Assembly (NCBI GenBank): GCA_965221955.1
Contig: CBDCTA010000002.1
Coordinates: 1-64,000, forward strand
DNA: 64,000 nucleotides
Reading direction: 5' to 3'
DNA from: Gammaproteobacteria bacterium
Lineage (GTDB): Bacteria > Pseudomonadota > Gammaproteobacteria > UBA4575
Shown piece after piece: positions 59,981 to 60,169 of this stretch (position 1 is the stretch's first letter; the number at the start of each line of letters is the position of its first letter). The position numbers and the translations under genes were made by a program. The notes beneath the pieces were generated by a model, which worked only from the letters and a program-made list of their open reading frames with translations, was not told where the DNA came from and searched no databases.

Positions 59981-60169
59981 ATGTCTGAGAATGAAGAATT
60001 TGGTTTAAAGGACTTAACTGCAGAAATGATAAAAATCGTAAGGAATGAGACAAGAGCTGGAACAATAGACTGTAGGGATGCGTTGATTGAAAGTAAGGGA
60101 GATACGGATAAAGCGATAGAGATTTTGAAAGAGAAGGGAATTGGAACACCAAAAAAAGTTTGGACGTAA
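59981..60169 (+). CDS. Stand-alone EF-Ts N-terminal (UBA-like) domain protein, 62 aa
   Basis: 'TAEMIKIVRNETRAGTIDCRDALIESKGDTDKAIEILKEKG' parallels the EF-Ts N-terminus '[28 protein letters not shown].E.AI'; strong RBS AGGAGG. Confidence 0.75.
   Translation: MSENEEFGLKDLTAEMIKIVRNETRAGTIDCRDALIESKGDTDKAIEILKEKGIGTPKKVWT

Follow-up and report, generated by a model that had tools for sequence, protein, structure and literature searches.

A free-standing EF-Ts N-terminal-type domain in a predicted dimethylsulfone monooxygenase cassette: a candidate docking or coupling protein

The subject of this study is a small gene at positions 59981–60169 (+ strand) of a stretch of 64,000 nucleotides from a gammaproteobacterial genome (contig CBDCTA010000002.1; hereafter the window), of which the 62-amino acid (aa) product is referred to by the working name mini. 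The mini is a conserved, selected part of a gene cassette for predicted dimethylsulfone breakdown. The core of this cassette consists of mini, sfnG, a gene for an MsuE-like FMN reductase, and unk106, our name for the gene and its product, a protein of ~100 aa from a family without assignment. In this lineage, the cassette additionally has genes for a HpaC-type flavin reductase, a sigma-54 activator, a periplasmic binding protein (hereafter SBP) and RibBA. Its presence, its position and its natural fusions tie the mini to the SfnG system, and to the reductases in particular. As the same domain is fused to a flavin reductase in other bacteria, the mini probably links parts of the SfnG enzyme system and is not a translation factor. 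More specifically, we propose that it serves a flavin monooxygenase system of the two-component kind as a module for protein docking or coupling, a role for which we consider the chances evenly balanced.

The mini and its relation to elongation factor Ts

The mini gene starts with ATG, ends with TAA and is preceded by the Shine-Dalgarno sequence AGGAGG (59971–59976, + strand), located four bases ahead of the start codon as read from the sequence. This confirms the strong ribosome binding site and the clean stop noted in the original prediction for this open reading frame (ORF). The product is free-standing and EF-Ts-N/UBA-like, with the C-terminus GTPKKVWT. In a comparison with the NCBIfam model for tsf (TIGR00116), mini residues 12–58 correspond to model positions 4–50 of 293 (E 4.1e-11), in agreement with the earlier statement that only the N-terminal domain of elongation factor Ts (EF-Ts) is matched. 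The score of 42.6 bits is below the curated cut-off of 104; the mini is therefore not an EF-Ts as a whole protein, and it does contain the N-terminal TS-N domain. A second, weak NCBIfam match is to the UBA end of archaeal NAC. For the window mini, no Pfam match was obtained at E ≤ 0.01, and likewise none to the EF-Ts core/dimerisation domain PF00889. The relatives P0199 (25.3 bits) and P0223 (22.7 bits) exceed the PF00627 cut-off of 22.4, and matches to PF25025 are below its cut-off. Against solved structures, the family profile matches the EF-Ts N-terminal domain (1efu_B residues 2–45, E 9e-11), and the homology between mini and EF-Ts spans about 45 residues. Based on the homology to solved EF-Ts N-domains, the mini is predicted to form a three-helix bundle (TS-N/UBA-like), a domain type that is protein-binding.

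The true tsf gene of this organism is intact (291 aa) and is found on another contig between rpsB and pyrH-frr. The mini gene is located between ribBA and sfnG, outside the rpsB-tsf-pyrH neighborhood, as was claimed before. When the genome's own EF-Ts was compared to the window by tblastn, only residues 3–44 aligned (36% identity, at 60014–60139), and only noise was observed downstream of the mini. This search thus revealed no tsf remnant, the sign of decay for which the original prediction had proposed to look, and supports its view that the downstream DNA does not continue tsf. The rpsB gene beside the true tsf (L001 2398–3654, minus strand; G000 contig 18) encodes a product of 418 aa, with a long Lys/Ala/Glu-rich C-terminal extension past ribosomal protein S2.

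Homologues were searched in a collection of 5.8 billion proteins. All 89 candidate short homologues (89/89) matched at E ≤ 1e-3, which greatly exceeds what chance would produce; they measure 47–85 aa, are 71–95% identical and derive mostly from uncultured Gammaproteobacteria. Short proteins consisting of the EF-Ts N-domain alone, which had been suggested as a check, are therefore conserved. The proposed dN/dS analysis likewise indicates little non-synonymous change: between the window mini and 12 orthologues pN is 0.03–0.26 and pS 0.72–1.03 (synonymous sites being saturated), and for the 35 of 78 pairs that were unsaturated, and that allowed dS to be calculated, dN/dS has a median of 0.068 and a maximum of 0.365. 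A Shine-Dalgarno-like motif is present 3–12 nt ahead of the ATG in 19 of 21 family genes examined, and a contig from an independent public run spans positions 59855–61896 with a single difference. The mini is a real gene under selection, and not a decayed fragment.

A comparison was made of 95 minis and 65 EF-Ts N-termini from one search. The fold core common to both groups comprises T13, M16, K18, R21, T24, A26, G27, D30, C31, A34, and L35, and further E37, G40, D41, A45, L49, K52, and G53. Conserved switches relative to EF-Ts are specific for the mini (V to I17, L to V20, M-M to T28-I29, K-K to R32-D33, R to K50, and A to P57), and R25 is present in 99% of the minis, with an EF-Ts counterpart (Gly) that is only 58% conserved. 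The tail T-P-K-K-V-[WY]-x at the extreme C-terminus is new relative to EF-Ts. An aromatic residue occurs within the last two positions in 100 of 104 family members (W in 62, Y in 36, F in 2); in the four exceptions the ends are truncated or divergent. Family members carry the motif V-R-x-x-T-R-A-G-T-[IL]-D-C-R in ~60 aa that are either free or a C-terminal domain, a description to which the window mini conforms. By this comparison, the mini is assigned to a previously undescribed family that is derived from the three-helix N-terminal domain of EF-Ts, with an added tail. Since the tail contains Trp in 17/17 sfnG-adjacent copies and Tyr in 5/5 second copies (see below), the Trp-tail and Tyr-tail minis are two old paralogue types and not sporadic duplicates.

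Association with sfnG and flavin reductases, and possible roles of the mini

In an even sample of 401 genomes from the window's class, the mini was found in two (E ≤ 1e-15), both from the window's own family; within this bacterial family, 18 of 56 genomes contain it. SfnG is present above its curated cut-off in 28 of the 56 family genomes, and an orthologue of the HpaC-type reductase in 19, being the 18 mini genomes plus one other (G429). All mini genomes (18/18) have both SfnG and the HpaC-type reductase. Conversely, the mini is found in none of the 28 family genomes that lack SfnG, and the reductase in only one of the 38 mini-less genomes (G429). In the family genomes, 18 of 23 mini copies are located directly upstream of sfnG, and one is divergently oriented to an sfnG. 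Scanning a single genome for each species yielded 20 related loci, of which the gene order was determined by tblastn. In 16 of these, the mini is directly 5' of sfnG and shares its strand, and the full order activator-SBP-ribBA-mini-sfnG-msuE-like-unk106 is observed in 12, often followed by genes for a Nudix hydrolase and for one or two OsmC-like proteins. The HpaC-type reductase gene to the left of the activator is kept in the 12 related loci that extend far enough.

Outside this phylum, the mini was found in three of 401 genomes of an Actinomycetota sample; the same three represent 3/104 of one Actinomycetota order. Two of these genomes (GC 0.72 and 0.63) show the order mini-sfnG-msuE-unk106-Flavin_Reduct, and the contig of the third (L023) contains mini-sfnG. 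Because the gene order is shared and SfnG is 71–72% and the mini 55–63% identical across the phyla, we conclude that the four-gene core has moved between phyla as a unit, and that the cassette has spread horizontally.

Several related genomes lack the mini. This holds for nine SfnG genomes of one genus, of which four were checked (L027, L028, L030, and L032, from G447, G450, G443, and G448, respectively) and five are counted from scores only. In the four checked genomes, the operon is reduced to ribBA-sfnG-unk106, and a clean gap of 174 nt takes the place expected for the mini. With the queries used, neither MsuE-like nor HpaC-type reductases were found anywhere in these four genomes. In G429, an IS-like (insertion sequence-like) helix-turn-helix ORF is located just upstream of sfnG (L029 5607–6008), and the island's left portion, with the DmoA-like gene, reductase and activator (L124), is found about 0.9 Mb away. 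The island has thus been split in this genome, and the mini lost. In-frame stops were observed in other relatives: a TAA in the MsuE orthologue (G405:C1:1346454-1347044), a TGA in the DmoA-like gene (G452:C1:636337-637755) and a TAA in a second LLM gene (G407:C1:512413-513432), which hints that portions of the island are decaying in several genomes. Fourteen SfnG positions separate the mini-bearing from the mini-less cassettes, the latter set being one lineage of four close relatives; as Pseudomonas fluorescens SfnG agrees with the mini-bearing state at 3 of 6 positions mapped by eye, no inference is drawn from the separating positions.

Natural fusions were identified with a profile search over 1.84 billion representatives, which gave 5766 matches at E ≤ 1e-3, for the most part true EF-Ts; at E ≤ 1e-10, 40 were left. 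The top of this list consists of diverged free minis that match to the last profile position, plus two fusions. P0223 is unk106 followed by the mini (159 aa), and its 90% cluster has 8 members, all of 159 aa, on 22 contigs from three sources; P0208 is a Flavin_Reduct domain (PF01613, E 1.8e-44) followed by the mini. A search of longer proteins (211–2000 residues) yielded five protein clusters with the arrangement Flavin_Reduct, linker and mini, with examples from Pseudonocardia hispaniensis (WP_379587951.1; Actinomycetota) and Glaciimonas immobilis (WP_168053444.1; Burkholderiales), and contained no SfnG-mini fusion among proteins of this size. The mini is C-terminal in all six fusion architectures, leaving its tail free, and in 4 of the 5 reductase fusions the linker comprises ~40 low-complexity residues. 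The reductase encoded in the window (54031–54516) shares 54% identity with the corresponding part of the Glaciimonas immobilis fusion (P0346), and its C-terminus coincides exactly with the point at which the fusions proceed to linker and mini. By this alignment, it can be regarded as the unfused counterpart of the reductase domain that bears a mini elsewhere. A metagenome scan with the alignment of the reductase fusions picked up reductase-domain patterns, and none of the 80 ordinary flavin-reductase loci retrieved contained a mini or sfnG (0/80, tblastn). Ranked just under the true family members are proteins of 600–1100 aa with two mini-profile matches each (P0202–P0219). These may represent polyproteins in which the EF-Ts N-domain is repeated.

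Second copies of the mini account for the remaining four of the 20 related loci. Two are on short DNA without recognizable neighbors, one is divergent from msuE and unk106, and one is divergent from sfnG and msuE. The genome of the window itself has a second, Tyr-tailed mini (L119; G000 contig 4, 57000–73000), with a second unk106 directly after it. This pair is flanked by an isochorismatase-family gene and soxY-soxZ, and neither sfnG nor a reductase gene occurs within 7 kb of the second mini. A cytochrome c and a YeeE/YedE-type sulfur transporter are encoded near this unit. A pairing of the Tyr-tailed second copy with a DmoA-like monooxygenase was considered and rejected, as G405 and G406 have the second copy and no such gene.

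If the mini is a docking or coupling module, its helical domain and free aromatic tail would hold the flavin reductase close to the monooxygenase part of the system, SfnG/unk106, and the proximity of the reductase would allow FMNH2 to be handed on efficiently to the monooxygenase. The module would be covalently attached to the reductase or to unk106 in some bacteria, and encoded by a separate gene in the window. Binding of the mini to cassette proteins, the identity of the partner it contacts and an effect on the coupling of flavin transfer are all putative. The original prediction had offered two functions, a modulator of EF-Tu or an adaptor for the monooxygenase or reductase. The adaptor fits the position in sfnG cassettes of two phyla, the co-occurrence and the fusions; the EF-Tu modulator is backed by homology only. 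In a more far-reaching version, which we find possible but doubtful, an EF-Ts N-domain would have been adopted as a dedicated coupling protein that assembles the reductase, unk106 and the luciferase-like monooxygenase into an FMNH2-channeling complex, in which the Trp and Tyr paralogues may address different targets.

Several observations weigh against such a docking or coupling role. The genomes in which co-occurrence was counted are related and inherit the entire cassette as one block, and the counts therefore overstate independence. The reduced operon without mini persists in relatives, and Pseudomonas SfnG functions without any such small protein, according to the part of the SfnG structure paper that is available (PMC11588060). 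The second minis accompany differing subsets of genes (unk106 alone; MsuE and unk106; SfnG and MsuE), which leaves the partner ambiguous, and genomes with two minis hold just one Flavin_Reduct match. Together, the varied company and the single reductase argue against a one-to-one pairing with the HpaC-type reductase. Finally, the 90% cluster of the Glaciimonas fusion also includes a free mini of 61 aa with near-identity to the fused domain, and a simple 'split gene' picture is therefore incomplete.

As an alternative, the mini could be a small structural or regulatory subunit of SfnG itself, for instance a stabilizer of the oligomer or of the active-site lid, that does not recruit a reductase; the fusions would then reflect the same complex. 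Its place immediately upstream of sfnG (16/20 loci, 18/23 copies) and the mini-sfnG pair that stands alone on the Actinomycetota contig agree with such a subunit, as does the oligomeric state of Pseudomonas fluorescens SfnG, described as labile and ligand-dependent in the accessible text of the structure paper (PMC11588060). However, the nine genomes of one genus possess SfnG without mini, those checked retain sfnG-unk106, and there the mini has been lost along with both reductases. The commonest fusion partner, moreover, is the reductase, and the search of longer proteins found no SfnG-mini fusion. We therefore regard an SfnG subunit as rather unlikely.

By analogy with another reductase, the mini could also be a gate or inhibitor of the flavin reductase, of which the aromatic tail would fill the flavin/NADH site and keep NADH from being oxidized in vain, and peroxide from forming, before the monooxygenase is ready. 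The Trp or Tyr at the penultimate position, conserved in a family with an aromatic tail in 100/104 members, the fusion of the domain to the C-terminus of HpaC-type reductases and the OsmC-like protein encoded in the locus are in line with this. In mycobacterial NTA-MoB, the conserved C-terminal tail is found within the other protomer's active site and is proposed to block flavin/NADH binding, as far as the available text of that study goes (PMC3169409). A gate leaves the unk106-mini fusion and the mini-unk106 pair distant from any reductase unexplained, however, and the ~40-residue linkers in 4/5 fusions resemble tethers; we consider it improbable.

The N-terminal domain of EF-Ts contacts EF-Tu. 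With its homology to this domain and the common fold-core residues, the mini might bind EF-Tu in the same way and tune translation under sulfur limitation. Yet conserved EF-Ts positions are replaced in the mini (I17, V20, T28-I29, R32-D33, and P57), the EF-Ts core domain is missing, the mini strictly co-occurs with a metabolic cassette, and it is fused to reductases and unk106, all of which make such a function very improbable. Even less can be said for regulation of cassette expression, for instance by binding to the sigma-54 activator: the mini is small and helical, and its gene belongs to an operon beside this activator, but the Actinomycetota cassettes have no match to the activator (tblastn), the fusions are to enzymes, and no DNA-binding family was matched in Pfam or NCBIfam. 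That the ORF is a functionless, decayed piece of a duplicated tsf is virtually excluded, as the restriction of the match to the start of tsf and the two broken neighboring genes in the window (see below) are opposed by the 89 conserved short homologues, strong purifying selection, the conservation of both length (60–62 aa) and new tail, the lack of a tsf remnant downstream, and synteny kept across two phyla.

Gene organization of the window

The leftmost gene of the cassette in the window (54031–54516, − strand), divergent from the activator gene, encodes the HpaC-type flavin reductase (Flavin_Reduct, 161 aa; Pfam PF01613, E 3.8e-37). Its best NCBIfam matches are of the HpaC/HsaB/FerA/RutF type, all under their cut-offs. 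In one related genus, an orthologue of the DmoA-like monooxygenase gene (see unk106 below) is located right beside the island's HpaC-type reductase gene, a position that suggests that this reductase has a DmoB-like role. The activator (55002–56402, + strand) is a sigma-54-dependent protein with a receiver domain (Pfam Sigma54_activat, Response_reg, AAA_lid_14), syntenic in 14 related loci. Its best NCBIfam matches (AtoC, NtrC and others) all fall under their cut-offs, and its role is presumed to be SfnR-like.

Upstream of the SBP gene, a −24/−12-like element of the sigma-54 type (GG-N10-GC) is found at 56670–56685 (+ strand), with 2 mismatches to TGGCAC-N5-TTGC. A GG-N10-GC site occurs within the activator-SBP spacer in 14/14 loci, compared to a mean of 1.2 and a maximum of 5 in shuffles (n = 500), with the caveat that these loci are related and not independent. 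No consistent site of this type was found before the mini or before sfnG across the loci. The element at 56670–56685 is therefore likely to be the operon promoter, and the mini is probably transcribed within one sigma-54 operon. Matches resembling sigma-70 promoters and terminators were at chance level, no Rfam family reached its gathering score in the window, and a tRNA search of the window returned none. A sigma-54-like site with 1 mismatch (63346–63361) lies ahead of the OsmC-like gene. Elsewhere in the window, a large flagellar cluster (~11500–48000) encodes FlgE, FlgK, flagellin, FliD, FliF, FliK, FlhA and an FlhF-like protein, and contains perfect TGGCAC-N5-TTGC sequences at 11512–11527 and 37549–37564.

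Two genes directly upstream of the mini are broken. The SBP gene (56862–58332, + strand; Peripla_BP_6) consists of two overlapping ORFs in different frames, with the Pfam match on the first part. It is split by a +1 frameshift near 57698, where the window has one extra base compared to both L004 and the contig of a related strain; in relatives, the SBP tblastn matches abut within one frame. The ribBA gene for DHBP synthase/GTP cyclohydrolase II (58675–59916, + strand) is in at least four pieces, which carry PF00926 and PF00925. It shows many frame-breaking indels relative to L004, and the ribBA of L027 is intact (412 aa). As the broken ribBA pieces are the sole PF00925 (GTP cyclohydrolase II) matches in the genome, which is 96.6% complete, the source organism may be a riboflavin auxotroph, or this stretch may be poorly assembled. 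The other long ORFs of the window appear intact.

Downstream of the mini, the original prediction of a monooxygenase operon is borne out by sfnG and the FMN reductase gene. The sfnG product (60288–61460, + strand; 390 aa) is of the FMNH2-dependent dimethylsulfone monooxygenase type, with 551 bits to TIGR04021 (cut-off 382.95) and an E-value of 9.5e-122 to PDB entry 8t0u_A; it thereby qualifies as an SfnG equivalog, with dimethylsulfone activity as a prediction only. In the alignment, the cassette SfnG has ~20 extra N-terminal residues (60288–60350; M-A-T-Y-P-K-L-L-P-N-S-E-N-P-L-K-P-S-A-W) before the start of the Pseudomonas fluorescens protein. The SfnG proteins of the Actinomycetota and of the reduced operon have this extension conserved as well. 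The next gene (61597–62196, + strand; 199 aa) encodes an NAD(P)H-dependent FMN reductase. As it matches Pfam FMN_red (E 1.5e-28) and scores 135 bits to the MsuE model TIGR03566, below the cut-off of 212.5, we classify it as an MsuE/SsuE-type reductase and not as a proven MsuE. It is followed by unk106 and two frequent downstream members, a Nudix hydrolase gene (62670–63164, + strand; Pfam NUDIX), syntenic in 8/20 related loci (tblastn), and an OsmC-like gene (63403–63972, + strand; Pfam OsmC), which is syntenic as well.

A constant member of the cassette, unk106 (62234–62539, + strand; 101 aa) can also be read from 62219, where the ORF is open too. We found 104 homologues, and the genome contains three copies (62234–62539 of the window, L003 1739–2044 and L120 6141–6458). 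The protein has no Pfam or NCBIfam match, and with Pfam relaxed to E ≤ 1 the matches among 22 members were just weak and scattered. Its AlphaFold2 (AF2) model (pLDDT 79.6) has six strands followed by helices. Foldseek found nothing in the PDB at E ≤ 1e-3 for this model, and the best Z in a wide VIA-align comparison was 4.7 (PipX, 3n5b_B; root-mean-square deviation 2.9 over 68 residues), a value within the range of noise. The mini and unk106 are unrelated according to hhalign (probability 0.2%). An association of unk106 with sfnG is retained in the reduced operon as well, where mini and both reductases are missing. The third copy is located directly upstream of a gene for a 489-aa FMN-dependent monooxygenase of the NtaA/DmoA family (L120 6593–8062, G000 contig 29; TIGR03860, 513 bits). 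A general association of unk106 with DmoA-like genes was rejected, as it was true in 1/7 loci checked.

Comparison with known systems

Database names for members of the mini family include 'hypothetical protein', 'elongation factor Ts' and 'NACalpha-BTF3-like transcription factor', and the last two, assigned automatically, are misleading for the minis. Compared to the EF-Ts N-domain, the mini shows clear homology over ~45 residues and the common core residues; it differs in being a free-standing protein of 62 aa without core domain, in its residue switches and new tail, and in its metabolic cassette. It represents a known domain in a new use, a translation-factor domain reused in metabolism, in an undescribed family with an undescribed partner, unk106.

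Two-component flavin monooxygenases are usually regarded as a reductase plus an oxygenase. To our knowledge, no coupling protein of this kind is known for them. A limited search of open-access literature, covering main texts, found no description of an EF-Ts-like or UBA-like protein in such systems. Within the available text, Pseudomonas fluorescens sfnG is presented as a gene that stands by itself and relies on MsuE, a small accessory protein is not mentioned, and how the SfnG tetramer meets a reductase is stated to be unknown (PMC11588060). The accessible parts of a study on dimethylsulfide (DMS) assimilation by Acinetobacter (PMC13352529) and of a screening of DmoA/DmoB (PMC9259527) mention two components only, the latter adding that a suitable second subunit is needed for activity. 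It is still debated whether free diffusion or a hand-over within a complex conveys the reduced flavin, as presented in the available portions of these texts (PMC11588060, PMC9259527). In this context, the mini is a testable candidate for a missing link, being a small conserved protein in cassettes across phyla that is fused to a reductase in cultured species. If it does assemble a coupling complex, it would be the first dedicated coupling or effector subunit of this enzyme class, and could explain why two-component reconstitution of some systems, such as the DMS monooxygenase, is difficult. Expression of marine or actinobacterial SfnG-type systems may need both mini and unk106.

The Pseudomonas SfnG/MsuE (sfnFG) system resembles the cassette in the window, which has an SfnG equivalog, an FMN reductase and sigma-54-type control; the sfnFG operon reportedly depends on the sigma-54 activator SfnR. 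In contrast to that system, the cassette adds the mini, unk106, the HpaC-type reductase and ribBA, and its SfnG has the ~20 extra N-terminal residues. C-terminal appendages are known from other HpaC-type reductases. In reductase C1 of the Acinetobacter p-hydroxyphenylacetate hydroxylase, an extra C-terminal element is considered a modulator of the reductase. The five Flavin_Reduct-mini clusters are comparable to such enzymes and to NTA-MoB with its tail, as described in the accessible part of its publication (PMC3169409), but the appendage in these clusters is a flexibly linked TS-N/UBA-like domain, which also occurs free or on unk106, and its contact with the reductase is putative. In role, though not in descent, the mini may finally be compared to effectors of the MmoB type, small cofactor-less proteins of soluble diiron monooxygenases that are encoded in the operon. 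The likeness is an analogy of role only, that of a small cofactor-less operon protein possibly governing the hand-over between reductase and oxygenase, whereas fold and enzyme class are unrelated to those of the mini.

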